DNA of 64,000 bases from an uncultured Peptococcaceae bacterium (GTDB lineage: Bacteria; Bacillota; Dehalobacteriia; UBA4068), in assembly GCA_964372025.1 (NCBI GenBank), contig CAYJPF010000003.1:3334-67333 (forward strand). The letters run 5' to 3'. The notes beneath the pieces were generated by a model that had not been told where the DNA came from, ran no database searches, and saw nothing but the letters and a program-made list of their open reading frames with translations. Position numbers and translations under genes: made by a program. Shown here piece by piece: positions 22,679 to 40,500 of this stretch (the stretch's first letter is position 1; every line of letters begins with the position of its first letter).

Positions 22679-24622
22679 CTATCCAAACTTAGCAGTAACA
22701 CCGGTAACATTAGCAGAGCTAAAGTCCACGCTACCATAAAATATAGTAGAATGAGTGCTGTGCCCCACATCCCCCGGTCTTCTGCCTACATACAAGTTTC
22801 CGCTTCCCAATGAATGGGCACTAATGTATAAGCTGGAATTAGCGTCGAGACTAATGTTACCCTCGCTGGATAGTCGTATGTCTCCTAATTGGTTCCAGAA
22901 TTTTAAGTCAGCATTTACAGCCGACAGAACAGCTTCGTTATTAGCGTTATCTATTTCAAAATGCATCTTAGAGTCGTTGTCTATACCACCCATCTCGACA
23001 CCGTTATCAGAGACAACAAGATACCCTTGACCGAACATCATATCAGTATAGTCGTTAGCATCGCTTTCAGCAGCGTTAGCATACCCTCTGGCATCACTAC
23101 GTACCGCAGAAGCCGATAGCGTTATCTCTGACCCTAACTCACTGGATACTTGTGTAATGCGGCTCTCTGTGTCTATAAATCCTTGTGCTGTCTCTGCTTG
23201 GTACTGAGTGACTAAAGAGATGGTAGCATAAGTAGCGTCTGCGTATGTGTAGATGTTCGCTATAGAGACAACTGTGTCGGACATGTACTGACTAAGGGTA
23301 ACGTACCCGCCGTCAGTCTTGATATGCACATCATCGCCTTCGTAACTACCGTTCCAATCGAACTTAGGATTATCTACCGTTGAGTTGTCATAGGCAAGCT
23401 TGAACATCTCGACGACGTTAATTAGCTTATCACCTATCAATACTGTAGCTTCAGACATATTCCACACATCGTAAGACCAATCGATAACGCGTAGTTCTTT
23501 TACCTCTAACTCAGAGCCGTCTGTAGAACGAGCGTACACTCTAACGATATCTCCTATCTGGAAAGTCTCGTGAGCATAGTCAGGTTCTTCTCTACGGTCG
23601 TACAGTTGTACACTGTAGTTTTCTTTAGGCTTGCACCTATCTCTTAGTTCTCGCTGTCCCCAATACTTGAGCTGTGTCTGACCGCTGGTAGATGCAGCAC
23701 CTGTGTACTTAATGTTAGGGTTAACGAGATACCCCTCGTACACTTCGTCTGTATAGGAATAGTTCTCGAGGTAAGTCTTGTCGTTGTTTACAGCTTTAAT
23801 GTTTAGGTTTCCGTCTCCTAAGATGTAAGCCTTAGTGACTATGTTGTTGTCTACGGTGATTACAGGCTCAGCAAGCATGTTTTTACCGTACCGTACATCG
23901 TACCCTACCCACGTATTAAAGTCCGTCCCTATCTTGTCTGCGTCTCTTAGAGATACAGTCTTGGCTATACTATCATAAACAAGTACGCCTCCCCATAGAG
24001 TGCGTATATTTTTTATGTTTGTAAGCACATCTTTCATGTCGCTTTCTAAGTTGAAAACACCGTAATCTTCGTCAGGGTCAAATCCATCCACGAGAACATC
24101 ACAAACACCCAAAGACCAACCAAAGCGATTACCTTTAAGCACAGCCCATAGAGCATATCCTGCGCTACCTCTGGGCATAGTAATACCACGACCATCTTTA
24201 ACTTCGCTGTCATTATACTCAACGCCATTGACTGTAAGCTTATTGGTAGTGGGAGATTTAGGCAGTATCTTGACTGTGTGTTCGTCCATAGCCTCTACTT
24301 CTAAGTCCACATTATGCGCTTGAACATAAGTATTGGCAAGCTCATACCACTTTTCTACCAATATAACAGTGATAGTATCACCCTCATAGCGTACGGCTTC
24401 AGTGCTAAGAGCTTTATATATGCGTCCATTAACATGCCATTCATTACGTAAGTCTTTAACGTCTGCCCACTTCTTGCTGTCACGCAATATAGTAAAGGTA
24501 AAGGTGCTCTCACCATCTAACTGCGTATGAACAATAGGATTTATAATACTACCTTGTGCTACTGCTCCATTGGCAGGTTTATTAAAGACAGCTACTCTGT
24601 GCCCGTCTTTATCAAAAACTTG
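22679..24622 (-). CDS. tail-associated (Tal-like) minor structural protein, GTG start
   Basis: N-terminus VAIQVFDKDGHRVAVF...WHVNGRIYKALSTEA resembles the phage minor structural protein N-terminal region; GAAAGGAG RBS before GTG at 24622. Confidence 0.6.
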   Translation of the reverse strand, partial: QVFDKDGHRVAVFNKPANGAVAQGSIINPIVHTQLDGESTFTFTILRDSKKWADVKDLRNEWHVNGRIYKALSTEAVRYEGDTITVILVEKWYELANTYVQAHNVDLEVEAMDEHTVKILPKSPTTNKLTVNGVEYNDSEVKDGRGITMPRGSAGYALWAVLKGNRFGWSLGVCDVLVDGFDPDEDYGVFNLESDMKDVLTNIKNIRTLWGGVLVYDSIAKTVSLRDADKIGTDFNTWVGYDVRYGKNMLAEPVITVDNNIVTKAYILGDGNLNIKAVNNDKTYLENYSYTDEVYEGYLVNPNIKYTGAASTSGQTQLKYWGQRELRDRCKPKENYSVQLYDRREEPDYAHETFQIGDIVRVYARSTDGSELEVKELRVIDWSYDVWNMSEATVLIGDKLINVVEMFKLAYDNSTVDNPKFDWNGSYEGDDVHIKTDGGYVTLSQYMSDTVVSIANIYTYADATYATISLVTQYQAETAQGFIDTESRITQVSSELGSEITLSASAVRSDARGYANAAESDANDYTDMMFGQGYLVVSDNGVEMGGIDNDSKMHFEIDNANNEAVLSAVNADLKFWNQLGDIRLSSEGNISLDANSSLYISAHSLGSGNLYVGRRPGDVGHSTHSTIFYGSVDFSSANVTGVTAKFG

Positions 24623-24644
24623 TATAGCCACTTTAATTCTCCTT

Positions 24645-25439
24645 TCAATACAGCTCGTCTGATTTCCAAAGGAACATCGGATTATACTGCACAAGCATGT
24701 TTGCTTCAGTCTCAGCGTTGAGAGCAGTCACAGCATAACTCTTAGTCTTGGATATCTTAGTAAAGAGATACCCTTTGCTCAGATAACGCATAGCATTAAT
24801 CTGACTGCCATCTATGCCTAATAGGTAACACCTGTCCTCTACAGCGTCTATAACAAGCGAATAGCCTGTGGGTACAGTACTATCCCACTTGAACTCAACA
24901 TCGCCTACAGTGAAATTAGGAGTTACTACGCCTTCTCCTATCGTTGCTGTAAAGCCTATATCAGCATGACCCTTGTTATCTATCATGCCGTTGCCGTGGA
25001 AGGCTACAGGGGCAACCAACGTTCCATATGGTTGTGTCTCAAACGGTATAGACACCTTAATCATGTTGTATTCGTCAAGTATCTCAGCAGACCCGGAATA
25101 TTTCACCTTAAACATAATACCGGCCTTAGTAAACACAAAGTTTTGATACTTGTCTTTAGTACTGTCGAGAGCAAACACTAAGTCGCGTTTAATCTTTTCC
25201 CTTTGCTCGAATGTTCGCCCTGCATACGACACAGCAACTACAGAGAATACCCTGTTCAAGTACTTAGTATCCTTGACTATTTCGCCATCTACACCGGGGA
25301 TATTAACGATAACATTCTCAGCAACTGGGATAGCAGGGAAGTTAGTTTCATCTGTGTTGACAATCAAACCAAAAGGCATAAAGTATATCCTCGGGTCTGT
25401 ATCTCCCACTCTGCCTATAGTAAAGTTAAAATCACTCAT
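24645..25439 (-). CDS. distal tail protein (Dit)-like, siphovirus tail family
   Basis: MSDFNFTIGRVGDTDPRIYFMPFGL...IPGVDGEIV pattern; paralog of adjacent gene. Confidence 0.6.
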   Translation of the reverse strand: MSDFNFTIGRVGDTDPRIYFMPFGLIVNTDETNFPAIPVAENVIVNIPGVDGEIVKDTKYLNRVFSVVAVSYAGRTFEQREKIKRDLVFALDSTKDKYQNFVFTKAGIMFKVKYSGSAEILDEYNMIKVSIPFETQPYGTLVAPVAFHGNGMIDNKGHADIGFTATIGEGVVTPNFTVGDVEFKWDSTVPTGYSLVIDAVEDRCYLLGIDGSQINAMRYLSKGYLFTKISKTKSYAVTALNAETEANMLVQYNPMFLWKSDELY

Positions 25440-26590
25440 TCAGAAAACTCCTTTCCCCACAAATACATTGGGCTATAATCAGTGACTATACTTGCCAAAG
25501 TGCTTGAGTTGAGGCAAGTAAGCTTTGCACTCTCGTTAAGATTAAGCTTAAAGAACTCTCCGCCTTTAGTTAAATCAGTTATAGCGTTAATTCTATTTCC
25601 AAAACCGTCAATCAGATAGCATATGGATTTGTCTGCATCTATGATAAGCTTATAGCCTTCAGGCACAGTGCCTTCCCACAGAAACTCCAGCGTGCCTACA
25701 GTAAAGTTAGGATTAACACATCCAGCGGACAGGGTGAATATAGCGCCTATAGGCTTAGCGCCTGTATTAGTAATAGTGCCATCTCCGTAGAACTGTTCAG
25801 AGAACAATGTCTTGCCGTAGGGTGAAACTTCAAAAGGCACTGTAGCTCTCAACCAGCCATGTCCCTCACGAACCTCAGCACCGCCTGAGTACTTAACATC
25901 AAAGGTCATGTCGTTCTCTTGGATAGACAACTGCTGGCTCTCATTGCGTGTCCTGTCCAGCAACTCAGCGATGTGAGATTTCATTTCATTTAGCTGAGTA
26001 ACGCTTAGTCCTTGCATTGAGTAAGAGACAATATTAAAGAAACGATTAGTGTACAAAGTATCCTTAATCACTGTGCCATCAACGTTTGGAAGGTCGATAT
26101 AAGTACTTTCTGTAGAGGGCATAATCTGTATCTCGCTCTCTACAGGTGAAAGGAAAGTGTCGAAAGGCATGAACCACTTTTTGCGTGGGTCTCTATCCTC
26201 TGCACCACCAATATAAAAGTCGCTCTCAGCTACTCTGGGAATACCATCAGTAATTTCTACGCTATCAGACACAGGGATATGAGCAAAGGTACTCAAAACG
26301 TCACTTATGCCTATATCGTCTAAAATATCAAGAAACGCTGCAACTGAAGTACCATCTTGCATGTTTATTTGGTCGAACACATCTAATCGTGCTTCAGCAA
26401 GGCGTGTAGCATCGTCAACAATGACACTATCGCCGAATAAGTTAAGCACTTCCTGCAAGCCTATAGCGTCAGAAACATTGATAGTGTCGATTATGCTAAC
26501 CAAATAAGTAATAACTGCTCCATTGTAGGTCAACGCTCCTTCATAGCCATGCGCATTATAACGAGCGTTTTTGTTATAAATGTTGCTCAA
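25436..26590 (-). CDS. Dit-like paralog with about 130-aa N-terminal extension, TTG start
   Basis: Core ESDFYIGGAEDRDPRKKWFMPF...LPNVDGTVIKDT...PMYLW collinear with 24645-25439; AGGAGG 7 nt upstream of TTG at 26590. Confidence 0.55.
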   Translation of the reverse strand: MSNIYNKNARYNAHGYEGALTYNGAVITYLVSIIDTINVSDAIGLQEVLNLFGDSVIVDDATRLAEARLDVFDQINMQDGTSVAAFLDILDDIGISDVLSTFAHIPVSDSVEITDGIPRVAESDFYIGGAEDRDPRKKWFMPFDTFLSPVESEIQIMPSTESTYIDLPNVDGTVIKDTLYTNRFFNIVSYSMQGLSVTQLNEMKSHIAELLDRTRNESQQLSIQENDMTFDVKYSGGAEVREGHGWLRATVPFEVSPYGKTLFSEQFYGDGTITNTGAKPIGAIFTLSAGCVNPNFTVGTLEFLWEGTVPEGYKLIIDADKSICYLIDGFGNRINAITDLTKGGEFFKLNLNESAKLTCLNSSTLASIVTDYSPMYLWGKEFSE

Positions 26591-26597
26591 AAAAAGA

Positions 26598-26628
26598 CCT
26601 CCTAAAAAGAAAAGGGGCAAGCGCCCCT
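26598..26628 (-). terminator. rho-independent terminator (minus strand)
   Basis: GGGGCgcttGCCCC hairpin followed by TTTTCTTTTT on minus strand, immediately after stop of 26633 gene. Confidence 0.55.
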
Positions 26629-26632
26629 CGTC

Positions 26633-28039
26633 TTATATTCTTTCGTATAGATAATACCGCGGGCTTCTGTTTGCACAATCAAGTTCCAACGCTTCCCAAG
26701 AAGTATAGAAGTAATCTCCATTGATTTGCACGTATTTAGAACGATACGAAGAGTCGAACTTCCCGTCATACATATAAGCATCAGCACCCATCACAGTGTC
26801 GTTAATCATAGCCGCAAGGAAGATGTAATGCCCTCCGGTAGAAAAGATGCCGGTGTGACCAGACCTATCTCCACCTACATTAGCAATAACAGCTCCACCG
26901 CGCTTCAGAACCAACTCAGCTTCTTGCCAATCGCTTGTAGTCTGATAATCAACATCCCACTCGTCAGCTACTGCTTCAGAAAGCGTCTTCATGTTTGTTC
27001 CACCTGACACTCTTGCACCACACTCTAAAGCCAGCTCAACCATGCCCTCAACATCTACATTAAAACCCAAGCGAGACAGTACCATAGCCATAGAAGTAGG
27101 GCCACAACCACCGGATGCAACAGTTGCACTCTCGTAGCCCGGTGCAGGGTAAGGCATATTAGGGTAATCTCTTTGATTGAATACAGTAATGTCAGGCTTG
27201 AACTTACTTAAGCTTAACACAAAAGCAGCTCTGTAACCACTGGAAGTAGGATAGTAAATCCTTATTAGTCCATTGATAGTGACATCTCCGATAGCACATA
27301 CGTCACCTTCGGAAATATACCTTCCGCTCTCTATCAATCCAGCTTCGGTGTAAACAGACTGTTTCTCCGTTGAAACTAAAGTTACTTCTTGGTAGTACTC
27401 TGTATCTTCGGGCGGATGCGGCTCTGGTTGTTCTTCGGGCTCAGGCTCTACTATTGCAGGCGCATCATCATAAGCAACAACAGCGTTATATAGATAGTCC
27501 CTTGTGCTGGTGTCATGCCATTCACCTTCAAACAATAAGTACCTGCTTCCACCACCATCGTGATTAGACATGCTTACCATACCTGCGGACATAGCCTTAT
27601 TGCTAAATTGTTCTAAAGTGGTACCTTCATCAACCATGATTACATAGCAATCACCGTTAGCATCCATAGCGAAGCCTATACGATTAGGCTGTGAGTTAAA
27701 TGCAGGGTCACTCCAACTGGGAGGAACATACTTGCCATTGACTACGCTGCCTGTGAACCCGGTAAAGTATTCGTTCCAACCTAACCATGGAGTGCCAAAA
27801 CCAAGAGCTCCATCCTTAGTTATCCCCATACCATAACCATTGCCAGAGTCTTTTACTTGCTTGCCATCCTCAATGATTGTGCCAAGCGGAATGTTCCCTG
27901 TTTCTTTAGACCAATGCACAAATGAACCTGAAAACATAATCACAGGTTTTTCTTTTTGAGCGTTGTACCACTCTGTAGGCGTTTTGCCGCCGAGCCTCAC
28001 AACATCCCATCTTAATCCCTTTGGTAGCTTAAACTTTTT
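26633..28039 (-). CDS. two-domain protein: N-terminal phosphodiester-glycosidase-like domain + C-terminal C39-like cysteine peptidase domain (monocistronic moron)
   Basis: C-terminal GGCGPTSMAMVLSRLG ... GHYIFL (Cys/His dyad of Peptidase_C39_2-type); N-terminal assignment tentative; GTG start with AAGGGG RBS. Confidence 0.55.
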   Translation of the reverse strand, partial: KKFKLPKGLRWDVVRLGGKTPTEWYNAQKEKPVIMFSGSFVHWSKETGNIPLGTIIEDGKQVKDSGNGYGMGITKDGALGFGTPWLGWNEYFTGFTGSVVNGKYVPPSWSDPAFNSQPNRIGFAMDANGDCYVIMVDEGTTLEQFSNKAMSAGMVSMSNHDGGGSRYLLFEGEWHDTSTRDYLYNAVVAYDDAPAIVEPEPEEQPEPHPPEDTEYYQEVTLVSTEKQSVYTEAGLIESGRYISEGDVCAIGDVTINGLIRIYYPTSSGYRAAFVLSLSKFKPDITVFNQRDYPNMPYPAPGYESATVASGGCGPTSMAMVLSRLGFNVDVEGMVELALECGARVSGGTNMKTLSEAVADEWDVDYQTTSDWQEAELVLKRGGAVIANVGGDRSGHTGIFSTGGHYIFLAAMINDTVMGADAYMYDGKFDSSYRSKYVQINGDYFYTSWEALELDCANRSPRYYLYERI

Positions 28040-28074
28040 CACGTCAAAACCCCTTTTCAATTTAGTATGACTTT

Positions 28075-28103
28075 AATATACACCTATAAACATAAAATGT
28101 AAA
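28075..28103 (-). promoter_or_regulatory. candidate minus-strand promoter TTTACA-17-TATATT
   Basis: -10 at 28075-28080, -35 at 28098-28103 (reverse complement), about 35 nt upstream of GTG start. Confidence 0.4.
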
Positions 28104-28460
28104 GTTAATTAAGAGAAATTGTTAGATGTTGTATATATGGCCCTTTGGTGGGCTGGTTGAGCAAATAGCTACTCCCCCCCCCGCACGTGTTTAAAGCAAG
28201 AGAAAGGAGTAGCTACACATATGGCCCTTCGGAGCCGCCGCATATCGCTTTTTGCTATCAGCCGAAACTGAAATCGGATTAACCACCAAGGTCTTGTGTC
28301 AAACGTGGCGGGTGGTCATCCCTTTCCGATTCTCCCCTCATTGCTGAACAAGGACGGGGTCACTGCACTCACAGTGAAATCTTAAAAACAACGTGGCTCT
28401 AACCCACTACATACCGGTGACGAACACGGCACAGGGAATAACTCCACACCCCTGAACAAG

Positions 28461-28500
28461 AGTAAAAATATAAAAGCCCTACAGTGTAAGCGCACTGTAG
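28461..28500 (-). terminator. rho-independent terminator (minus strand)
   Basis: CTACAGTG-taagcg-CACTGTAG 8-bp hairpin followed on minus strand by GGCTTTTATATTTTTAC. Confidence 0.5.
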
Positions 28501-28587
28501 AGCCTTTGTATAACTTAGCATATGCTAAGTTATCATGTATGTAGTCGCTTACCTACAAACAAATAATAGCATACTCGAAAGCGTTTG

Positions 28588-29133
28588 TCAAGCCATGTAA
28601 TGAAAATAACAGTAAATACGCTCGTAAGGTTTTTTACCGCTATCTTCGTCAAACAAAAAGTCCTTAGCCAGCTCAACAAAAAAGCGAGCTTCACCGGTCA
28701 TTTCAGCAATCACAGCACTGCGGTAGTGGTCGTGCCACATAGCATTTAGGACAGCCCAGAACTCCATCTCTGTAAGGTCTGTCATGTCTACGCCATACTG
28801 CTTGCCCACGGCAGTAGTTTGTTGCATGTTCCAGTGTGCGCCCATATGCTTAGCACCGTTAGCTGTATGCCACATTCCGGCTACCCAGTCCTCAAGTTCT
28901 TTATCGCTCAAACGCATTTCGTGGTCTTCGCTATGCATTTCTGCGTCAGGGTAGGTAGCACCTAAAACTTCTGTGTGATAAGTTTTCCAAAACTCACGAC
29001 TACGCATAAGCTTACAAAACTCATACTCATGTACTACTTCGGCTTTCATTGCCGTAGTAAGGGGCATACCTGACTTGATGTCCTCTTGAAGCATTTGCAG
29101 TTTTTTCTCTGCATCAACGCAAGATTTATACAT
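28588..29133 (-). CDS. hypothetical His/Trp-rich protein (181 aa)
   Basis: AGGAGG 8 nt before second in-frame ATG (MYKSCVDAEKK...). Confidence 0.5.
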   Translation of the reverse strand: MYKSCVDAEKKLQMLQEDIKSGMPLTTAMKAEVVHEYEFCKLMRSREFWKTYHTEVLGATYPDAEMHSEDHEMRLSDKELEDWVAGMWHTANGAKHMGAHWNMQQTTAVGKQYGVDMTDLTEMEFWAVLNAMWHDHYRSAVIAEMTGEARFFVELAKDFLFDEDSGKKPYERIYCYFHYMA

Positions 29134-29314
29134 TAGTTTTATCCTCCTGTGTTTCATCTTCGCTTAGCACAGCGTTCATGTCTATGCCAAGCTTGTTTTT
29201 AAGCACCTTGTCGCCCATCTTTAATGCCATCTTGCTGGTGCTTTCAACTATCTTCCGCCCTTCAGCCGTTGTGAATAGGCAAGCAAAAGTAGCTCCCATT
29301 ACAAACTGCTTCAT
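29126..29314 (-). CDS. hypothetical small protein
   Basis: 62 aa from internal ATG; weak RBS. Confidence 0.35.
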   Translation of the reverse strand: MKQFVMGATFACLFTTAEGRKIVESTSKMALKMGDKVLKNKLGIDMNAVLSEDETQEDKTNV

Positions 29315-29315
29315 C

Positions 29316-29762
29316 TTAATTAGCACACTTTCTCTTGCCTTTTACGCCTTGAAGAGTTAAAGAGCACGATGCCGGTGCAAACCTCAAGACGAGTATACTT
29401 CTGCATTGAAGCGTAGTCTGCCACAGGTCAGCAACGCAACCACCTGTACGGCAAGGTAATACTTCATAGACAGGGAGCGTAGTAGTGCCGTCTGTAATCT
29501 CTACAAGATTGCACGAGCTGTCAAGCGGGATGCTGGCAAATAGACCAACCTCGACACATTCGCAAGCACAGAGACCTGTTAAAGCTCCATCCGATACAGT
29601 TACGGTGTACTTGCCGCTCTTTAAAGTTACACTGCTGGCTCGCAGTACGCAGTTACAATTACTCATTTTAGTAGTTCTCCTTTTAAGTTTTATTTCGTTA
29701 GTCGCAGTCGCAACTACAATTCCGTTAATGCTAAAAGACGCTGTGTTTATGATACTAAGCAT
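29316..29762 (-). CDS. Cys-rich protein (12 Cys in C-terminal 116 aa); start ambiguous (29762 or 29666)
   Basis: N-terminus MLSIINTASF resembles MSIVNTANF of upstream gene (shared TAAACACAGC DNA); internal AAGGAG RBS before MSNCNCVLRAS. Confidence 0.4.
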   Translation of the reverse strand: MLSIINTASFSINGIVVATATNEIKLKRRTTKMSNCNCVLRASSVTLKSGKYTVTVSDGALTGLCACECVEVGLFASIPLDSSCNLVEITDGTTTLPVYEVLPCRTGGCVADLWQTTLQCRSILVLRFAPASCSLTLQGVKGKRKCAN

Positions 29763-30106
29763 TGATAGAGTATCAAGTGGCTCGAGTTAGGCATCCAGTT
29801 GACTTCTATATGTGAAGGATTGCCTTCTAAGGGTTCGGCATCTACAGTAAGCGTACCTTCTATATAGCTTAATGCTGAAGGCAGGGTGTCACTAAAGACT
29901 TGATTGGTAAGTTGACCGTTGAAGTCGCTTATTTCGATGGTAACAGCATAGGTAATCACGTCTCCACGATAAACTGAACTTGGGTGAGCTTTTTTGCTAA
30001 TAGTCACAATAGGCTCAACAAGTTGCTCTACAGTGGAGCTGGCATTAACTACAAAGTCTTCATCTCGGAAGCGATAATTAAAGTTAGCTGTGTTTACAAT
30101 TGACAT
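29747..30106 (-). CDS. DUF11-like beta-sandwich (conserved repeat domain) protein
   Basis: YRGDVITYAVTIEISDFNGQLTNQVFSDTLPSALSYIEGTLTVD resembles the DUF11/B_ant repeat pattern. Confidence 0.45.
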   Translation of the reverse strand: MSIVNTANFNYRFRDEDFVVNASSTVEQLVEPIVTISKKAHPSSVYRGDVITYAVTIEISDFNGQLTNQVFSDTLPSALSYIEGTLTVDAEPLEGNPSHIEVNWMPNSSHLILYQCLVS

Positions 30107-30192
30107 GATAGCCTCCTAAATTAAAAGAGGACGGTCTCCCGCCCTCTAAGTCACGCCGAAGCGGAAAGTCACAATAATTTCTTATTGGAAAA

Positions 30193-30711
30193 TTAGCAGC
30201 CGAATCCGCCTACAGGACTACCACTGCATACATAAGCCTGACCGTAAAGTCTGGGCTCTTTCAGCATCTCGCAACGGATAGCGTTAAGCTCTGCTTTGAT
30301 AGCAGCAGTCTCAGCTTGCGAAACGAGGTCGCGCTTAAGGGTTGCTACCTCAAGGTTAAGTGCGTTCTTCTCTTGTCCATCAAGGATAGCACGTGATTGT
30401 GCATCAAGCTTGAGGTCAAAGATACGCTCTTGAAGTCCAGCCTCATACTGGCGCGAAGACTGGTCATACAGTCTCTGAGTGTTGGCGTTATTAGCTTCGA
30501 TTGTGCGGTTTGTGGTTTGCTCAATCAGATACTGAGTACGAGCGGTATCTATAATGCCTTGTTTTTCAACTTCGCAGTTAGATACACGGTTGCAACCAGC
30601 TTCATTGTAGCGATTACCAAACAGTCCGCCGCCGAAAATCAGCCAAATGATAACGATGATAAACAGGATACCAATGGTTGAGTTCGAGCTTGTGTCTCTT
30701 GTTTCCCACAT
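30193..30711 (-). CDS. membrane-anchored coiled-coil protein with Cys-rich ends
   Basis: N-terminal TM IGILFIIVIIWLIFGGGLFG, long helical region, C-terminal YVCSGSPVGGFGC. Confidence 0.5.
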   Translation of the reverse strand: MWETRDTSSNSTIGILFIIVIIWLIFGGGLFGNRYNEAGCNRVSNCEVEKQGIIDTARTQYLIEQTTNRTIEANNANTQRLYDQSSRQYEAGLQERIFDLKLDAQSRAILDGQEKNALNLEVATLKRDLVSQAETAAIKAELNAIRCEMLKEPRLYGQAYVCSGSPVGGFGC

Positions 30712-30749
30712 AGTGTTTTGCTCCTTTCAAAAAATATTTATTTCGTCGC

Positions 30750-31115
30750 CTATTTCAGACGAGGAAATTTAGGTTTATTGCTGTTGGAGCTGGATTTATT
30801 TGAGCTTTGTGGCCTGTTTACTCCGCCACTTTTAACTATATTTAATCCTTGTTGTTTTAACTGTTCGGGACTTGTTCCTACAAGGCTTAGCAGAGTCTTA
30901 GCCATTGGATTACTCCCGTATCTATTATACAGTTCGTTTATTCCTTGCTCAGTAATACCAAAGTTACGAGCAATGTCACCTGCTTGGTCGTCAGTTGCTC
31001 CCTGAACTGCTTGGCTTGCTCGTTTTACTGCTTCCTGTATTTCGTTTTGGTTGCCCGGAAACATCTTCATCAACTGTGACAGTATCATTTGTGTGTTGAA
31101 CATTTGCATTACCAC
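30750..31115 (-). CDS. hypothetical protein
   Basis: ORF; overlaps 30991-31416 by about 115 nt in another frame; true start uncertain. Confidence 0.4.
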   Translation of the reverse strand: MVMQMFNTQMILSQLMKMFPGNQNEIQEAVKRASQAVQGATDDQAGDIARNFGITEQGINELYNRYGSNPMAKTLLSLVGTSPEQLKQQGLNIVKSGGVNRPQSSNKSSSNSNKPKFPRLK

Positions 31116-31416
31116 CTTTCAGTTCTTTTAACAACTGTAGTATCTCAAGGTTAGCCGCTTGGCTCTGCCTAAGAGCTTCTTGCGTCTCTTGCAAAATCTC
31201 TTCAGAAGTCTTTTCAGGTACGATGATGCCTACTTCGACAAGCTTGTTGTAATATTCAACTGTAGTCTCTTCTAAGGCGTTGTAGCGGTCGTTAGTATGC
31301 CCTATAGGTTGCTTGCCTGTATGGAAGTCTATGGCGTATATAACACCATCTTCTACTACACAAGGGATACGTGCGTTGCCTGTACTAAACTGGGCGTTGT
31401 AAGAAAAATCACTCAT
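30991..31416 (-). CDS. hypothetical protein (142 aa)
   Basis: AAAGGTG RBS before ATG at 31416 (MSDFSYNAQ...). Confidence 0.45.
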   Translation of the reverse strand: MSDFSYNAQFSTGNARIPCVVEDGVIYAIDFHTGKQPIGHTNDRYNALEETTVEYYNKLVEVGIIVPEKTSEEILQETQEALRQSQAANLEILQLLKELKGGNANVQHTNDTVTVDEDVSGQPKRNTGSSKTSKPSSSGSN

Positions 31417-31582
31417 AATTAACACACCTTTCTTTGTTGCAGCGACTGAGTGGGTGCAGGTGTGATACACCCACGTCTGCCGCCGCTATATACATGGGGG
31501 GAAGGAACGGGAATAAAAAACTCCCTACCTTGATACTACAAGATAGAGAGTATATTCATAAGTACTCTAAAGGTACTAATTA

Positions 31583-32932
31583 TTATTTTTTCTTTTGGTT
31601 TTTCTTTAGCTCTGGGAACACCTTAGCAACCTCACCAAAGTAGTTCTTACACGTTTGTTCAGAATAGCCAATCTCTAAAGAGACCTGCTTCATTGTCATG
31701 TTATCCACACAATACATTAAGGTTATCTTCTCGTGTAAGTTTCTAAAACCAGCTTCATTAAGTTTTAGCTTCAACTCATGTTTAGGTGAAAACAACATCT
31801 TTAGTTTAGCAATGAAGGGTTTGTCTGCTATATAATCAAATGCCTCTCTTATCATATACAGAATAAAGTCAACAATCAGTGCGACGATAACTGTGTTGAA
31901 GATAGAGAAAGCAATTCCGGTTGTATTAAATAACGCTACACACAAAGTGATTGTAGTGATACATACGCAAGCAATCTTGACCAGATTAGCTCTAATGTTA
32001 GGAATATAGTCTGCGTGAAACTGCTTTGGAAATAGCTTTCTTAGTGCTAAGTATGCAACGTAAAGAAAAACTGCCTCAACTACTCTGCCTATAAAGTACG
32101 CATAAAGCAAGTACAATCCATAGACAAATATAAGCGGAGGCAAATTCTTCTTCAAGTCGTGCCGAAACTCAAGCTTCAGGTAATGCTTGAAGTTCTTCGA
32201 GTTCCGTGTGAAGCTTGTGCAAACGCCAGCGAATATACTCTTTTTCGCTTTCGTCTGTCGAACCTTCAAAGCGCTTGACAAGGTTTGCAATGCTTCCTTG
32301 AATACGCTTGCGCTCTTCTTCCATGAAGCCGAGGCCCCATCTAAACACAATAGCCATTTGCGTCCACCTACCTTTATATTTATTAGAGTTATAATCCATA
32401 AAAGATAATAGTCAACAGAATATATCGCAGACATTGCAAAAGACTGTGATTGTTCTATTAAAGATAAATTAAGAACAAACAGCGAACAAAAACTGAAAAT
32501 GCTATCTAAAACAAACAAGCACATCGTAGGCGCAAGGCGCTTCGTAAATAATAACGGAATTGCATAAAAAGAAAAACTTAGAATTGCTACTAACACATTC
32601 CATTCTTCCCCTGCGAATAAAGTGTTGATAACAATTAAATAAGATGTTACAAAAGTATTAACAATTAAGGCTCTACTTTTGTAATTTGGGATAACACAGG
32701 CGTACATTAGGTTAATGCCTATCATGCCCTTGATTACGTTAATTATACCTCTCGCCCAGTCGTTGCTGTCTACAAAATAAATAAAAGCGTTGAGTCGAGA
32801 ATTAGTTATCTCTACACCAAACGCTTCTATGCCGAAAAGCTTCAGTGTAAACGTAGCAAACAAGAACACCCAACACAAGGTTAGCACTCGACTCATTATA
32901 GCCGTGAAATGTGCTCTTGTCATAATAGTCAC
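31583..32932 (-). CDS. polytopic membrane protein with C-terminal sigma70-region4/LuxR-like HTH
   Basis: multiple TM helices at both ends; C-terminal MTMKQVSLEIGYSEQTCKNYFGEVAKV; hydrophilic central linker contains an alternative-frame ORF. Confidence 0.5.
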   Translation of the reverse strand: MTIMTRAHFTAIMSRVLTLCWVFLFATFTLKLFGIEAFGVEITNSRLNAFIYFVDSNDWARGIINVIKGMIGINLMYACVIPNYKSRALIVNTFVTSYLIVINTLFAGEEWNVLVAILSFSFYAIPLLFTKRLAPTMCLFVLDSIFSFCSLFVLNLSLIEQSQSFAMSAIYSVDYYLLWIITLINIKVGGRKWLLCLDGASASWKKSASVFKEALQTLSSALKVRQTKAKKSIFAGVCTSFTRNSKNFKHYLKLEFRHDLKKNLPPLIFVYGLYLLYAYFIGRVVEAVFLYVAYLALRKLFPKQFHADYIPNIRANLVKIACVCITTITLCVALFNTTGIAFSIFNTVIVALIVDFILYMIREAFDYIADKPFIAKLKMLFSPKHELKLKLNEAGFRNLHEKITLMYCVDNMTMKQVSLEIGYSEQTCKNYFGEVAKVFPELKKNQKKK

Positions 32933-33095: not shown

Positions 33096-33572
33096 TCACT
33101 TAGCTCTTTTTTCAAGCTTATTAAAGCTTTCAATCCATGTAGGCATCGTTCCATTGCCATTGCTCTTTTCATAAGCATTGTAAAGTTTAATTACCGTCTC
33201 TACTTCGTCATAGGTGCTGTACCCACGTTCTAAAGCTCGTGTAATCAAATAATGCAGTCGTTCGTGAAGCACGGCAATGTTTGCTTCCTGCAATGCCGGA
33301 AGATTGTCTGCAACAGCGTTTAAACTTTCAATCGCTGTGGTTAGCTTGACAATCTGTCCGCTACAGTCTTTCCGGCATTGCAGCCCTGTTTCTAACTTTT
33401 CTCCCATCACTCTTACCTTTTCTTCAAGAGTTGCAATTTTGTTGTTTTGCAATCGTTTGTCTTGAATACGCCTTGCAATTTTCTTGCAAAGAGGGACAAT
33501 AATTTTTGCCAAAGTTAAATACGCACCTCCAATAATGCCAATTAACCCTGCAGCCTCTACAACTTCAAACAC
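33096..33572 (-). CDS. TM + coiled-coil protein, paralog A (holin-associated)
   Basis: N-terminal TM, C-terminal ERGYSTYDE...NGNGTMPTWIE..NKLEKRAK; paralog of 33594-34085. Confidence 0.5.
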   Translation of the reverse strand: MFEVVEAAGLIGIIGGAYLTLAKIIVPLCKKIARRIQDKRLQNNKIATLEEKVRVMGEKLETGLQCRKDCSGQIVKLTTAIESLNAVADNLPALQEANIAVLHERLHYLITRALERGYSTYDEVETVIKLYNAYEKSNGNGTMPTWIESFNKLEKRAK

Positions 33573-33593: not shown

Positions 33594-34085
33594 CTAACTG
33601 GCTCTTTTTTCAAGCCCTCCGTATACTTCCATCCACTTTGCCATAACGCCGTTACCATCGTTTTCTAAATACGCTCGGTGCAGATTGTGGATAACATCAA
33701 ACTCGTCAAAAGTCGTATACCCACGCTCTACAGCCTTTGTAATTAAATGATGAAGCTTGTCGTACATCATAGCAAGATTTGCCGCTTGAAGAGCTCTTAA
33801 CGCAGGTCTGAACCCTTCTGCTTCTTTAATTAACTCCTTTAAGGCGATGCTGTCTTCTTCGTACTTTTCGTCTAATTCAGCACCGGCTTTTACTGCCTCT
33901 TTCAACTCCCTCAAAACCTCCTCCAACTTGGCTATGCGTTCGCCTTGCATTTTTGTTGCCTGTCTTGCATCCCACCATCTACGAATGGGAGGCATGATTA
34001 GTTTTTGAACGGCTATAATGGCTCCGGCTACAATTGAAATTCCACCAAACCAGCCAAGTATTACGTCCATTTGCAAGCTAATCAT
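33594..34085 (-). CDS. TM + coiled-coil protein, paralog B
   Basis: C-terminal ERGYTTFDE...NDGNGVMAKWME..GGLEKRAS collinear with paralog A. Confidence 0.5.
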   Translation of the reverse strand: MISLQMDVILGWFGGISIVAGAIIAVQKLIMPPIRRWWDARQATKMQGERIAKLEEVLRELKEAVKAGAELDEKYEEDSIALKELIKEAEGFRPALRALQAANLAMMYDKLHHLITKAVERGYTTFDEFDVIHNLHRAYLENDGNGVMAKWMEVYGGLEKRAS

Positions 34086-35618: not shown

Positions 35619-36878
35619 TTATAGTGGTAAAACTATAGCACCGCAAAAACTACCAGACCCCATCGATATGGCCGCTGAGTTACTGCTGATAGCAATGACT
35701 AAAGACGTCTTCGGGGAATGACCATACTCTTGGTCGTAGATAGAGATGGTGTTTTTGTTGGTAGACTGAACAATAATTAGGTCTGTTCCAGCGTTTTCGC
35801 TGGAGTATATCATAAAATAATCAAATGGGTTATCGTTGCTCAAATAGGTTGTATAATTACTTTTATTAATTCTAAAGTTGTGTGCCGATGCGCCGACTCC
35901 TATGTACACGGCCATCCCGGAGCTATTGTCCACATATTGTTTATTAACCGCGTCTCCGTCGTCAGTAGGAGTTGCAAGATTGAGTATCTTATTTGTCGCC
36001 ATGTTAATGGCACCTGACATATTCCCACCACTTGTTGTTAAATAACTTAGTAACCTTTCAAGCAAAAAGCTTTGAGGAACAGCGTCATTGGCCTCAGCAG
36101 GAGAGGAGACATTCTGGATAGGGTTCCCACCCATGTTTAAGGTGCCACTCATTGTTCCTCCAATTTTGGGCAAAGCGTCTATAGGTGTAGCCCATTGCTC
36201 ACCGGTAGCTGTCTTGGTTAGAACTTGCCCAGCTTCTCCGGCTACAGTAGGCTTGGCTATAACGTCCTCTTTTAAAGCATAAGGTGTTAAGTCTATTTTA
36301 GCAGCAGAAGGCACCCAATCGCCTGTCACGCTGTCCCAGATATAGAACATATTCTCCGTGCCCAACACAAGAGCATAGTCACCACTAAGGCTTGTAGGTA
36401 AAGCTGTACGCAAAGCTTCTACAGAGGCATAATCACCCTTGTAGTTATCTATATGCTCCTCTATGGCTGCCAGCGATGCATTTATAGCCGATATAACGGC
36501 ACTTACATCGTTGACACATACAGCACTAACAGTAATCGTATCGTCCGCTGTGGGATACGTAGAAGGCTGCCCGACGAACTCTATACTACCACCTATATAA
36601 CTTACAGCAAATTGCGCAGACTCAGGAGTGATTATGACTCCATTCTTCTTAACAATAGGAGCAGGGCTTTCAAGCCAACCCTTCTTATCGTTAGGCACTT
36701 GGAATATACGATAGCGGTCGTCTGCGTCTATATAGACCTCAGTCATAGCCAAATCAGTTATTTCAGTAGTGCCAAGATTAAGCGCAGTAGCTAATTTAGT
36801 TATAGCTCCAGAGAGACCGGCAATGTCCGCACTCTTAGCAGCAGTTGAGCCGGGGTCAAATGATACAAATGTAGCCAT
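35619..36878 (-). CDS. tail fibre protein
   Basis: two copies of the fibre repeat GGTMSGTLNMGGNPIQNVSSPAEANDAVPQSFL / GGNMSGAINMATNKILNLATPTDDGDAVNKQYVD. Confidence 0.65.
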   Translation of the reverse strand: MATFVSFDPGSTAAKSADIAGLSGAITKLATALNLGTTEITDLAMTEVYIDADDRYRIFQVPNDKKGWLESPAPIVKKNGVIITPESAQFAVSYIGGSIEFVGQPSTYPTADDTITVSAVCVNDVSAVISAINASLAAIEEHIDNYKGDYASVEALRTALPTSLSGDYALVLGTENMFYIWDSVTGDWVPSAAKIDLTPYALKEDVIAKPTVAGEAGQVLTKTATGEQWATPIDALPKIGGTMSGTLNMGGNPIQNVSSPAEANDAVPQSFLLERLLSYLTTSGGNMSGAINMATNKILNLATPTDDGDAVNKQYVDNSSGMAVYIGVGASAHNFRINKSNYTTYLSNDNPFDYFMIYSSENAGTDLIIVQSTNKNTISIYDQEYGHSPKTSLVIAISSNSAAISMGSGSFCGAIVLPL

Positions 36879-37551: not shown

Positions 37552-40500
37552 TCAATAGGGCAGTAGCCTAAAGTCTAAGCTACTATATCCCGACTGTCTT
37601 TTCGTAGGTGTAAGATTTACTACTGTATTGTTCGTTGTGCGGGTGTTGTTGTAGTTGTTTTGAGAACCGGTATAACCTGAGCTTCCGCCGGGACTTGTAG
37701 GCATAGAAGGTGTCATCTTCTTCTGTTCTTCTTGGAATTGCCTTAGAACCGCAGCAAAATCTTCCGAGATAGGCTGTATCCAGCCATCACGCCATGCTTC
37801 ATACAAGATTTGAGCACTGCTCTCTCCAACTGATACCATGCCGTGGATAAAGATATCGTCTATCTCTAACCTTGCAGGGTCTGCCCATTCCTCTCCAAAG
37901 ACTTTAGATAGGTCTACAGCAGCAAGTTTGTTGTCTTTCTCCATCTGTTCAAGAACATCAGCCCACATCTTCTCGGCTAAATCGGTAGCCGGTATCATGT
38001 AATCTGTTTTATAGCTCTCCAGCAAGGCTTGATTGTCGTAGGATAGGTTATCCGCATCCAGCTCATTAACTTCATCTACGAGGGCAGATAAAGCGTCAAT
38101 AAGCCTATCAATGACTTCAAGCTCAGCATCTCTTAACGACTCAAGTTGCTCAATCTGGTCATCAATACGCCAGTCCTCAAGTTGCTCATTCCAATCCTTG
38201 TTGATATCAGAAATCTCTTCCATGATATCAGCTTCTTGTTCACGGTACTCTACACCGCTTCGAGCAGAAGCTTCAGCCAAAGACTTACTTGCTTCATCAA
38301 GACGCTCATAGTACTCTTCCTTAGCACGTATACGGTCGTTCTCTTGTTCGACATCCCTAAGCGCATCAATCTGAGCCTGATACCTGTCCTCAATAGCTTC
38401 TTTTTCGCGCTCTAAAGCTTCGATATTAAGCTCAAAGTTCTTTGTTATCTCTTCTTGGGTTTCTGCAAAATTAGACTGTATCTCTACAATTTCATTCTGC
38501 AAGTCCCACCAAGCGGTACTGTTAGCAAGGATGTCTGTAGCATACTCGTTAGGGTCAATAGCACGATATAAATTATTGACCTCGTGTAGTTTCTGCTGTA
38601 TAATCTGAAGCAATGCTACTTGCTCTTCGTCAGATGCGCCTCTTGCTCTTGAAAACTCCAACTCTGCTTCAGCTAAAGCCAAAGCCTCTTCTGCAGCTGT
38701 GATGCGTGGGTCTTCCGTGTCGCTACCGCCATAGCTATCATAGCTGTACGTATCGCCGGAAACATCTGGTAGCTGTACCCCAGCTTCAAGGTTGGCAAGC
38801 TCTTCTTGTATCTGACCTACCATGTCTAAAGCTGAAAGATATTCTTGCTCAGCAGCGATAAAGTCTGCGGTAGCTTCCTCTGCCAAAGAAGAAAACCCTT
38901 TGCGAATGTTAGCTATTTGGATATCTTTTTCGGCTTGTTCTGCAACATTAAGCCACTTCTCCAGCTCTGAGGTAAGCCCTTCAACATTAGTAGAAACAAC
39001 AAGGTTATTGACATTCATACCTTGTGCAAACAAAGCCGAAACCATTTGTGCCTGAGTAAGCAAGCCCTCGGTAGCTTCTTTCATTTGCTCGATACGAGTA
39101 ATAGCGTCTACTATTTCGTTTCCGACATCAACCCAAGCATTAGCGTAGTCCTCTAAGACTCCATTAACGATATCTTGAAGTAACTCTCCAGCCTCTCCAT
39201 TCTCTCGTATATACGCCTGCACATAGCTTTGAATAGCATCCCATGCTTCGCCTTCGCCCTTTACTCTTGCAGCGTTATAAGCATCAAAGTATCCGGACAT
39301 AGCATCTATTGCGTCTTCTACTTCAGCACCGTATAGCTCTTCTACTTCAAGTGCGGCTATCTGGGCTTTTCTTAGGATGTCATCGTTGATTGTATCCCAA
39401 TGCTCCTGATAGTCAGCTTCATATTCACTCATACGAGCTTCAATCGCAGTATATACTTCCTGAACTTCCGAAGGCCATTCGCTGAAGTCCATAGTGTATT
39501 GCTGATTTAACAGTTCCTGCAAACGCTCTAAGTTTTTGTAGATATCAAGAGCGCTGTCTCCAGAAATCTCAAAGGTTCTAAAAAGCTCCTCACCCTTAGA
39601 GTTGATTGTATCTATAGAGCCACCTACCTGTTCAATAAGGTGCTCTATTTCGGTAAGCTCTGGTACAGACTCTCCAAAAGTAAATCCTGTACTTTCAGAT
39701 GACTCCATAAGAAGCCCGCCTTGTTCGTTAATACGATTGGCGTTTGCAACTGCAACTTGATTTTCTATTTCTAAAGCTTTAAGTCGCTCTATAGACTCTT
39801 GCGCTATAAGAGCTATACCAGATTGACGACCATCGTTAAGCTTCTCAATCTGTTCTGCCTCAAGTGCATAAGCTTCAGTGACATCTTTTACCCAACCGCC
39901 AAGAACCTGCCTCTGAGATGCTTCTTCAGTCTGTAATAGCACTGTAGACTTGTACTGGTCTGACAGTTTTTGCATAGCAGAAAGCTCGTCAAACACCTCT
40001 TGTGCTCTATCATTAGCAGCAACAGACATCTCGCGTTGTTTTTCGTTATAATCTTCGATGGCACTAACTATTGCGTTTACAGCAAGAGTGCCGATAGCAA
40101 AGGCGGTAGTCCAACCAGTTATACTTTGGCTAAGAGTTTTGCTGACTTTAGCTGCTGCTTCTACGTTTGGATTGAACTTATTTGCTATGTTTTTTCCAGC
40201 ATTAACAAACGCAGTCCCAACACCACCAATAAACTTAGCAATGTTCTCTTGTTTGATAAGCAAGAAGGCTATCCACACTGCATTGAGCAGAGAAGGTATA
40301 CCACCGATTACGCCTACAAACTTTACAAGTTCGGTAAGCGCAGAAGTTAATCCTTTGAAGAAACTTAGTCCGCTCTCTTCACTAAAAGCTACTGCCAGCA
40401 ATTCAGCTTCATTACGCAGTACTTGGAAACGTACAGCAAGTGTGTTCATAACCTTGACGTTTTCTTCAACTGAATAATTAGAAGCAGTAAGCATACCCTC

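Follow-up and report, generated by a model that had tools for sequence, protein, structure and literature searches.

Two overlapping phage genes with a shared N-terminal peptide: a candidate naturally split DUF11/CLIPPER domain

Why should two overlapping phage genes, one coding for a DUF11-like protein and the other for a small Cys-rich protein, begin with almost the same peptide? The question was raised by a stretch of 64,000 nucleotides from an uncultured Peptococcaceae bacterium (assembly GCA_964372025.1, contig CAYJPF010000003.1, positions 3,334 to 67,333 of the forward strand), which is referred to here as the window. The window is a segment of a tailed-phage genome, in which terminase, head, tape-measure and Dit-like genes all lie on the minus strand. 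A first-pass annotation, made from the sequence alone, had pointed to two open reading frames (ORFs) with near-identical N-termini at 29747-30106 and 29316-29762, and both were found there on the minus strand. Their products, here named W119 and W148, begin with MSIVNTANF... and MLSIINTASF..., giving the common motif M(x)SI(V/I)NTA(N/S)F. As argued below from sequence comparison, we propose that W119 and W148 may form a naturally split CLIPPER (DUF11, CnaA-like) isopeptide system in which Asn-bearing hairpins are given in trans, a reading to which we assign a probability of roughly 0.55.

29747-30106, minus strand: W119 (119 amino acids), with a strong GGAGG Shine-Dalgarno (SD) sequence 5 nt before the ATG
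29316-29762, minus strand: W148 (148 amino acids), the Cys-rich protein in its long form, with a 16-nt overlap with W119
29316-29666, minus strand: W116, the short form (116 amino acids, MSNCNC...), from an internal ATG (29664-29666) behind AAGGAG (29677-29682)

W119, W148 and the shared N-terminal peptide

The likeness of the two N-termini was at first also noted as a shared DNA word, and the 10-mer TAAACACAGC does occur exactly twice in the window (29740-29749 and 30087-30096). With an expected count of 0.28, and with two or more copies in 7 of 100 shuffles, this word alone is weak evidence and is not significant. In a six-frame translation of the window the strict peptide motif was found only at the N-termini of W119 and W148; since the motif was built from the same two peptides, this check of uniqueness is circular. 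Independent evidence comes from four more, distant metagenomic phage loci (L050, L053, L044 and, in part, L049), because the same pair, overlap and motif recur in them, so that homologues sharing the N-terminal motif, whose absence the first-pass annotation had named as a refutation, do exist. The motif is conserved at the protein and not at the DNA level, as the W119 homologues differ in the surrounding codons and have AAC or AAT for the Asn, and an explanation by a DNA-level or RNA-level motif was rejected on that ground. Taken together, the earlier interpretation is partly supported: the N-terminal peptide common to a DUF11-type and a Cys-rich beta-sandwich protein is real and conserved.

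The five independent pairs (window, L050, L044, L049 and L053) are at 28-43% identity, L050 having 43% identity to the window in W119 and 59% in the C-terminal knob of W148 described below. In all five, the ATG of the second ORF is placed in Tyr-Gln-Cys codons of the first (caATGy, in the window caATGc), the second frame (frame B) is open into the knob, and the TAA stop of the first ORF overlaps the (Ile/Val)-Asn codons of the motif, the TAA of W119 (29747-29749) overlapping the codons of Ile5 and Asn6 of W148. The residues K38, G48, I57, D73 and Y114-Q115-C116 are invariant in 5 of 5 DUF11-like bodies, and in the nine N-terminal peptides only Met1 and the Asn do not vary. The knob homologues that have no DUF11-like neighbour (L046, L047/48, all short forms) also have no extension. 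At L052 (3477-3992, P0123) no DUF11-like gene adjoins; the protein there has a longer but degenerate version of the N-terminal extension, with Asp (..TATDIVKYMLNG..) where the motif has Asn, and this extension may be a relic or a Lys-Asp variant whose partner is encoded elsewhere.

DUF11 was renamed CLIPPER in a 2025 paper in which the structure PDB 9IFR was solved (PMC12617251). In that structure an intramolecular isopeptide bond joins Lys715 to Asn806, with Asp748 as the presumed catalyst; the CnaA-like CLIPPER fold carries the Lys on its first strand and the Asn on its penultimate one, and the bond is absent from some DUF11 domains (PMC12617251). The label "DUF11-like", given to W119 in the first pass, is borne out by NCBIfam TIGR01451 (DUF11 type repeat), with 36.9 bits over a cutoff of 24 (E 2.7e-9), and not by Pfam DUF11 (PF01345), where 15.8 bits lie below the cutoff of 24.6 and only profile positions 3-54 of 114 are matched. 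The score against TIGR04226 (isopeptide-forming fimbrial domain), 25.4 bits, was likewise below its cutoff of 30. The best PDB match to the W119 family profile was the CLIPPER crystal structure, 9IFR_A (E 5e-6). Most of the 9IFR chain was rebuilt from two HMMER alignments with a numbering offset of 705, under which Lys715 is K10, Asn806 is N101 and Cys818/Cys821 are C113/C116; the Asp that aligns with D73 of W119 counts as 749 on the rebuilt chain, the residue named in the paper being Asp748. The C-terminus of W119 (...HLILYQCLVS, then the stop) ends where strand b7 of 9IFR (...LTYKVLV) ends, one loop before the Asn-bearing strand.

By sequence, W119 is a member of the DUF11/CLIPPER superfamily with strands b1-b7 only. 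It does not hold a complete 7-9-strand CnaA-like beta-sandwich in one continuous segment, and the Lys/Asp/Asn triad of CLIPPER is present only in split form, with K38 and D73 in the body and the Asn in the N-terminal peptides. Nor does it have the usual DUF11 context of tandem repeats and signal or sorting signals, being a single 119-residue protein whose N-terminus is not hydrophobic (maximum KD19 1.04) and which has one Cys, at residue 116. The residues and segments on which the proposal leans are as follows.

29993-29995, minus strand: codon of Lys38, the predicted isopeptide lysine on the first strand (..VTISKK..), aligned with Lys715 (VVK) of 9IFR
29888-29890, minus strand: codon of Asp73, the predicted catalytic acid (..FSDTLP..), aligned with the Asp of ..LNDTLG.. 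in 9IFR
30020-30103, minus strand: putative donor hairpin of W119, residues 2-29 (SIVNTANFNYRF-RDED-FVVNASSTVEQL), with the invariant Asn5 codon at 30092-30094
29685-29759, minus strand: putative donor hairpin of W148, residues 2-26 (LSIINTASFSI-NG-IVVATATNEIKL), with the invariant Asn6 codon at 29745-29747

The shared peptide was then scored as the part of the domain that W119 lacks. In this complementation a 4-residue loop was used to attach the N-terminal 23-25 residues or so behind the C-terminus of the DUF11-like protein, and the product was rescored on Pfam DUF11 (bits, with the matched profile positions in brackets).

W119 of the window: native 15.8 (3-54); with the W148 peptide 19.7 (3-97); with its own peptide 21.5 (3-104); with a shuffled peptide 16.1
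L050: native 21.0 (3-67); with the downstream peptide 27.5 (3-96); with its own peptide 32.4 (3-104); with shuffled peptides (n=11) 22.2-25.8
L044: native 24.4 (2-62); with the downstream peptide 27.4 (2-96); with its own peptide 29.9 (2-109); with a shuffled peptide 24.1

The L050 shuffles were 5 of its own peptide (22.3-25.7 bits) and 6 of the downstream peptide (maximum 25.8). The appended N-terminal peptides carry the Pfam DUF11 coverage to 96-109 of 114, and with the own peptide the profile is clearly complete. When 9IFR was aligned globally with the construct carrying the appended ..SIINTAS.., the Asn of this peptide came to lie on Asn806, and in an AlphaFold2 (AF2) model of W148 the extension is a beta-hairpin, with strands at 2-12 and 15-26 and a predicted local distance difference test (pLDDT) score of about 80-90, which fits b8-b9. 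An incomplete sheet carrying an N-terminal Asn donor, and an acceptor with a Lys and an acid, are both recognised, at the level of sequence only. It is probable that the N-terminal motif corresponds to the missing CLIPPER hairpin, whatever its mode of use. The suggestion that the shared peptide was a disulfide-related or targeting tag was not borne out, as it matches instead the Asn-bearing penultimate strand and the last strand of the DUF11/CLIPPER fold.

In W148, residues 2-26 make up the hairpin, 27-38 a basic linker and 39-141 a beta-sandwich knob rich in Cys. In the AF2 model, made from a 20-sequence alignment, the overall pLDDT was 86.8, with the knob above 90 and the linker at low confidence. 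The internal AAGGAG-ATG start reported in the first pass was found, together with its 116-residue product; the 12 cysteines claimed for that module were counted as 11, and a CxC/CC cluster is conserved at the N-terminus across the knob family. It is the 116-residue product that the NCBI gene call at this locus gives (P0150), and the closest homologue, P0121 (59% identity), is also annotated from the internal start. Since an internal SD-like element and start codon are present in 5 of 5 long ORFs (for L044 a GTG behind GAGGAG, its sole candidate), a hairpin-less 116-residue form alongside the long one looks possible at all five loci. The N-terminal extension of W148 is, judged by its substitutions, coding sequence: between the window and L050, codons 7-31, past the overlap, hold 9 synonymous and 11 nonsynonymous changes in frame, as against 1/18 and 0/18 in the other two frames, and the ratio resembles that of the knob domain (23 synonymous, 28 nonsynonymous).

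Proposed donation in trans and its alternatives

An Ig-like stalk domain with an odd number of strands has its N-terminus and C-terminus at opposite poles. In W119 the connection from b9 to b1 would measure about 3-5 residues by a sequence-based strand assignment, and the spacing from Asn to Lys within the W119 homologues is 31-36 residues, close to the spacing from the Asn of one repeat to the Lys of the next in a tandem array, which was estimated at about 29-30 from the 9IFR domain boundaries (708-828). Because of the short b9-b1 link, the tandem-like spacing and the opposite poles of the termini, we infer that the hairpin cannot reach its own groove. The acceptor would then be b1-b7 of W119 with its Lys and Asp, and the donors would be the Asn-bearing hairpins of both W119 and W148. 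By entering the open groove of another W119, each hairpin would help to rebuild a tandem-DUF11 stalk from separate subunits, and given the invariant triad each junction would probably be sealed by a spontaneous Lys38-Asn isopeptide bond. W148, a donor without an acceptor, would cap the acceptor end and display its Cys-rich knob at the tip. Translational coupling is proposed as the source of long W148, since its ATG precedes the W119 stop by 13-19 nt in the five loci, and the hairpin-less short form would come from the internal SD and start. As neither protein has a signal peptide, assembly may be expected in the cytoplasm, as for virion parts.

Donor-strand exchange combined with an intermolecular Asn-Lys isopeptide lock is experimentally supported in BsaA (PMC11580942) and in archaeal threads (PMC9715654). 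For the phage pair the anatomy and its conservation, the completed profile and the invariant residues are shown, and from these we infer trans donation, bond formation, polymer length and fibre location (on the virion or elsewhere). The full picture, that of a phage-encoded, self-assembling covalent fibre in which a head-to-tail W119 polymer with Lys-Asn seals is capped by the long isoform, the ratio of cap to stalk sets the length and the short isoform fills the knob oligomer, is put forward tentatively, at clearly less than even odds.

Several observations weigh against donation in trans. The gain from the downstream peptide is small, 27.5 bits in L050 against 25.8 for the best shuffle, a margin of 1.7 bits, and the hairpin-complemented W119 of the window still falls under the Pfam DUF11 gathering score (21.5 vs 24.6). 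The single-sequence AF2 model of W119 was unusable (pLDDT 45). K, D and N are family-typical DUF11 residues, whose conservation alone is no proof of a bond. The upstream ATG of W148 has no SD while the internal start has a good one, and the conserved Tyr-Gln-Cys and the ATG embedded in it constrain each other, which leaves initiation of W148 at that ATG putative. A search of the window with local HMMs turned up no acceptor to take the first W119's free hairpin, no second acceptor domain and no knob paralogue. Only five pairs are known, all of them metagenomic. No new pair was found in viral_contigs (W116, A3, A10) or in metagenome_contigs (A5, A10), genome_contigs gave only the L050 contig, tblastn and blastn gave no copy among 50,697 GenBank phage records, and a word-index search with a fused query returned nothing, though the window's own proteins are in that collection.

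It might be argued that the hairpin acts only in cis, W119 being a circular permutant whose hairpin folds into its own groove to give a monomer, possibly with an intramolecular bond and with no fibre; the W148 hairpin would then be a relic, a competitor, or an unrelated small hairpin packing on the knob. Such a view draws on the better score of the own peptide over the downstream one (32.4 vs 27.5 bits in L050, 21.5 vs 19.7 in the window), on the AF2 model, which builds the W148 hairpin confidently without a partner, and on intramolecular bonds being the rule for DUF11 (PMC12617251). It has to contend with the 3-5-residue b9-b1 link and with an Asn-to-Lys distance that matches the inter-domain spacing of tandem arrays, in which such a hairpin is part of the domain before, and it leaves unexplained why the W148 hairpin has an invariant Asn and a coding constraint and is present only beside a DUF11-like gene. 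We consider it unlikely, though not negligible.

A second alternative starts from the overlap. Phages are known to add Ig-like domains to structural proteins by programmed frameshifting, as Fraser and colleagues reportedly described in 2006, and a conserved -1 recoding within the 13-19-nt overlap could yield a complete CLIPPER fused to the knob (about 260 residues) alongside the 119-residue product. Frame B is in fact the -1 frame and reads open from shortly ahead of the W119 stop on into the knob, the junction lies exactly at the b7-b8 boundary, and all five loci keep the arrangement. However, no X XXY YYZ slippery heptamer or other conserved shift site is present in any of the five overlaps, all five have an ATG at the start of frame B, and the N-terminal hairpin of W119 itself would be left without a role, so that recoding appears improbable. 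A sequencing error or an earlier frameshift, with frame-B residues in place of b7, was rejected as well: the DUF11 score was not raised, and the frame-A ..YQC.. is kept in the five loci.

The first-pass annotation had likened the pair to disulfide-rich subunits of covalently cross-linked fibres or appendages, and had mentioned secreted effectors. On such a view the N-terminal peptide would be a tag for targeting or assembly, unrelated to the DUF11 fold. The 11 Cys of the knob and its conserved CxC/CC cluster, the Cys at both ends of the neighbouring transmembrane (TM) protein, and a BclA_C-like protein in the same slot of L006-type cassettes (Pfam E 5.6e-6, below threshold) would all suit an appendage of the Ena type. 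W119, however, has a single Cys, which would not allow a disulfide polymer through a Cys-rich connector, no Pfam or NCBIfam match to DUF3992, DUF4183 or spore families was obtained, and on the DUF11 profile the tag itself scores as the part that is missing. The idea of covalently cross-linked fibre subunits came near the reading that is best supported here, with Lys-Asn isopeptide bonds and not disulfides as the predicted chemistry; that of secreted effectors finds no signal peptide in either protein, and the motif sits at the extreme N-terminus. Disulfide linkage or secretion therefore seems hardly probable as the explanation of the shared peptide. That the 148-residue ORF is a spurious extension of the 116-residue gene with a coincidental motif is very improbable, for although the gene callers of NCBI and of the closest homologue use the internal start, the upstream ATG has no SD and the 10-mer is insignificant, the extension, the ATG position and the Asn are kept in five lineages with coding-type substitutions, and the extension is absent where the DUF11-like gene is absent.

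Likeness to known isopeptide and strand-exchange systems

With CLIPPER (PF01345, 9IFR) the phage pair shares the DUF11 repeat match, the alignment of Lys715 and Asp, a motif that falls on the Asn806 strand and the same predicted triad chemistry. Known CLIPPER domains have nine strands in one chain, an intramolecular bond, and are found as tandem repeats in long secreted adhesins (PMC12617251), whereas W119 is cut after b7, and b8-b9 would be carried at the N-termini of two small phage proteins that have no signal peptides.

In bacterial adhesins, spontaneous isopeptide domains are known to act as intramolecular staples, and their laboratory splits have become major protein-engineering tools. 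In SpyTag/SpyCatcher and in isopeptag/pilin-C a sandwich without its reactive strand and a short peptide dock, after which an amide bond forms spontaneously. W119 and W148 would resemble these in having a "Catcher" with Lys and acid and a "Tag" with the partner residue, here predicted. The laboratory systems are splits of CnaB-type or CnaA-type domains, while the split of W119/W148 would be natural and is kept in five lineages; in addition, the W119 tag would be a two-strand hairpin, and tag and catcher would lie on one protein, which would allow polymerisation.

The closest precedents for fibre building are BsaA of Clostridium perfringens, a member of the TasA family (PMC11580942), and the Sulfolobus threads (PMC9715654). 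In both, an N-terminal segment completes the sheet of the next subunit and the junction is locked by an acid-catalysed intermolecular Asn-Lys isopeptide bond, giving covalent fibres (PMC11580942, PMC9715654). They differ from W119/W148 in being secreted cell-surface or matrix proteins with TasA-like or thread folds, and neither has a cap protein of its own in which an unrelated tip domain bears the same donor element, as W148 would be. No Pfam or NCBIfam match of W119 or W148 at E<=1 indicated homology to TasA/BsaA or to threads.

In chaperone-usher pili (FimA/PapA; summarised in PMC11821415) an incomplete Ig-like fold, which lacks its last strand, is also made whole by an N-terminal extension of a neighbour, and special subunits stand at the fibre ends. 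Unlike the proposed phage system, these pili are non-covalent, depend on a periplasmic chaperone and an usher, donate a single strand and have no sequence relationship to W119/W148. A comparison may also be made with the Ena1A/B appendages of Bacillus endospores. As Pradhan and colleagues reportedly found in 2021, these are built of small beta-sandwich subunits whose N-terminal connector covalently links neighbours. The Ena proteins (DUF3992/DUF4183) use disulfides from a Cys-rich N-terminal connector, whereas the peptide shared by W119 and W148 has no Cys, and neither protein had a Pfam or NCBIfam match to DUF3992 or DUF4183 at E<=1.

In the searchable literature no description was found of a natural split DUF11 or CnaA-type domain, or of the gene cassette in which the pair lies. 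If the covalent-fibre reading were true, the pair would represent the first CnaA-type isopeptide domain split in nature, and a viral route to fibre building that is new. Evolution would have reached the Tag/Catcher principle independently in a CnaA-type fold, with an Asn hairpin placed on two proteins, and a third fold would join the short list of fibres made by donor-strand exchange and lock. The pair could also serve as a new orthogonal ligation pair with a two-strand tag, and it would suggest a way in which gut-anaerobe phages construct or decorate fibres using very small genes. The finding also offers a first clue to the function of an unannotated superfamily of Cys-rich beta-sandwich proteins, which has thousands of members in gut phages, and of a conserved, uncharacterised cassette of six to eight genes.

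The knob family, the cassette and the phage genome

An exhaustive HMMER search with W148 gave 22 matches, of which 19 were small Cys-rich family members and 3 were spurious, and a profile search for the knob family gave 15. The spurious ones, P0129 (6660 residues), P0135 (1425 residues) and P0136 (WD40), were set aside as repeat-sum or low-complexity artefacts that do not belong to the family. The knob has no structural neighbour in the PDB (best Foldseek E 0.14), no sequence relative there and no Pfam entry. Its first BFVD matches are uncharacterised small proteins of gut phages (E 1e-5 to 3e-4, TM-score about 0.5-0.68), and the next are the distal domains of annotated tail-fibre proteins; these predicted-structure matches would fit a fibre tip. 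The family is marked by its N-terminal Cys cluster, ..ITDGTTT.. and ..W/YRP..L.CRS.., motifs that the window protein also has, and the common fold is confident. The alignment of this Cys-rich phage beta-sandwich family (A2) was compared by hhalign with that of a related family (A1), giving a probability of 90.7% (E 1.2e-6). The A1 family (L001 7024-7458; P0001-P0120) comprises 2778 Cys-rich phage proteins of about 140 residues, all named "hypothetical" and with no Pfam domain, and is homologous to the N-terminal half of the window knob. Together, by sequence homology, the knob and A1 point to a large unannotated superfamily. The "IISNTINF" of the L001 protein was considered as a possible hairpin and rejected, being the first strand of the knob. 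No relation to BclA_C (PF18573) was seen, as the knob had no Pfam match to it and hhalign of A2 against the BclA_C-like protein of L006 gave a probability of 0.4%.

The W119/W148 pair lies between the tape-measure side and the Dit-like genes, in the late-gene region of the phage, so that the tail-gene setting reported in the first pass holds.

50473-51777, minus strand: large terminase
46158-47237, minus strand: major head protein
37552-41757, minus strand: tape-measure gene
25436-26620 and 24645-25439, minus strand: Dit-like genes
30193-30711, minus strand: upstream neighbour, a 172-residue TM/Cys protein with an N-terminal TM anchor, a conserved GCNRVSNCEVEKQ box and a helical region
29126-29326, minus strand: YtxH-like protein of 66 residues, a conserved cassette member (Pfam YtxH E 0.017, weak)
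28588-29157, minus strand: DUF7841 protein of 189 residues, the last cassette gene (Pfam DUF7841 49.3 bits, cutoff 25.2)
30126-30147, minus strand: terminator-like GC-rich hairpin and T-run between the TM-protein gene and W119 (consensus scan only)
28472-28507, minus strand: strong terminator-like hairpin after the DUF7841 gene (consensus scan)

The pair forms part of a conserved cassette, made up of a pair of small genes that overlap (30991-31470 and 30750-31115), the TM/Cys protein, a slot for a variable beta-protein, the YtxH-like protein and, finally, DUF7841 or a short (rubrerythrin-like) helical protein. The cassette was found in more than 45 other metagenomic phage loci with a GC content of about 35-59%. 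Its usual place is directly behind the genes for holin and endolysin, or else next to early genes, and in the window it stands among tail genes. It had no match to anti-phage defence systems in PADLOC and no Pfam or PHROG function.

Window: 28588-31470, minus strand
L006: 7241-9482
L044: 972-3641
L050: 2088-4899
L047: 3433-6024

In L002-L042, which make up one abundant lineage, the variable slot holds a 133-residue BclA_C-like (C1q/TNF-like knob) protein, for example at L006 8614-9015, where Pfam BclA_C is matched over its full length with E 5.6e-6 and 26.7 bits, below the cutoff of 38. In this lineage the cassette lies between the endolysin and the integrase, a typical position for a lysogenic-conversion module. 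In L001 the slot (7024-7458) is filled by a member of the 2778-protein family homologous to the window knob.

The TM anchor of the 30193-30711 protein and its ending in YVCSGSPVGGFGC, both noted in the first pass, were confirmed. The protein has one strong hydrophobic segment near the N-terminus (residues 13-31, KD 2.79) and conserved Cys at both ends, and 42 relatives on viral contigs at about 42% identity, with homologues in L044, L050, L053 and L052; it is a member of the conserved cassette, and no link with the hairpin system was seen. Positional homologues of the YtxH-like protein were found in L006, L044, L050 and L052, and the slot of the DUF7841 gene is likewise filled in L049, L050, L052 and L053. 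No literature on DUF7841 was found. A gut-phage protein of 294 residues annotated as "DUF7841 domain-containing protein" (BFVD A0A8S5LXP6) matches the knob structurally over about 104 columns with a TM-score of 0.41. From this model comparison, a knob-like beta-sandwich and DUF7841 may be fused in some phages, which hints that the products of the neighbouring genes interact.

In four lineages an overlap of 62-125 nt was found between the two small genes that precede the TM protein. The window's second gene is read in the +1 frame with respect to the first, which could reflect a later true start or a recoding event.

Window: overlap at 30991-31115, minus strand
L006: overlap at 7593-7696
L050: overlap at 2404-2468
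L044: overlap at 1282-1343

The terminator-like hairpin at 30126-30147 may set off the W119, W148, YtxH-like and DUF7841 genes as a sub-operon. Together with those at 28472-28507 and 31520-31551 (minus strand), it splits the region into three units, namely a 449-residue membrane protein, the two small genes with the TM protein, and W119 with W148, the YtxH-like and the DUF7841 genes; the total of terminator-like hairpins in the window is no higher than in shuffled sequence, which makes their positions no more than suggestive. About 530 nt (28061-28587) without a convincing ORF separate the DUF7841 gene from the gene at 26633-28060, which codes for a 475-residue NAGPA and Peptidase_C39_2 protein; the strongest terminator-like hairpin and two minus-strand promoter-like sites lie in this gap.

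Two Dit-like genes and a tail protein (22679-28060, minus strand) are located about 11 kb downstream of the tape-measure gene and not directly after it, with some 15 genes, the cassette included, in between, an unusual layout for a tail module. The contig of L050/L051 (CAYJGO010000054.1) was binned in a metagenome-assembled genome labelled "uncultured Treponemataceae bacterium", other relatives being labelled Clostridia or Oscillospiraceae, and the host assignment of this phage group is uncertain.

Upstream of the cassette, 31583-32932 (minus strand) codes for the 449-residue polytopic membrane protein, which has no Pfam match, has a counterpart at L050 715-2025 that is also upstream of the cassette, and shows in its C-terminal stretch a weak likeness to a transcription-regulator helix-turn-helix (phrog_36, E 0.012). 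Two adjacent paralogues at 33096-33572 and 33594-34085 (minus strand), both matching phrog_4257 (unknown function), are placed between this membrane protein and a collagen-like or fibre-like protein (35619-36878).

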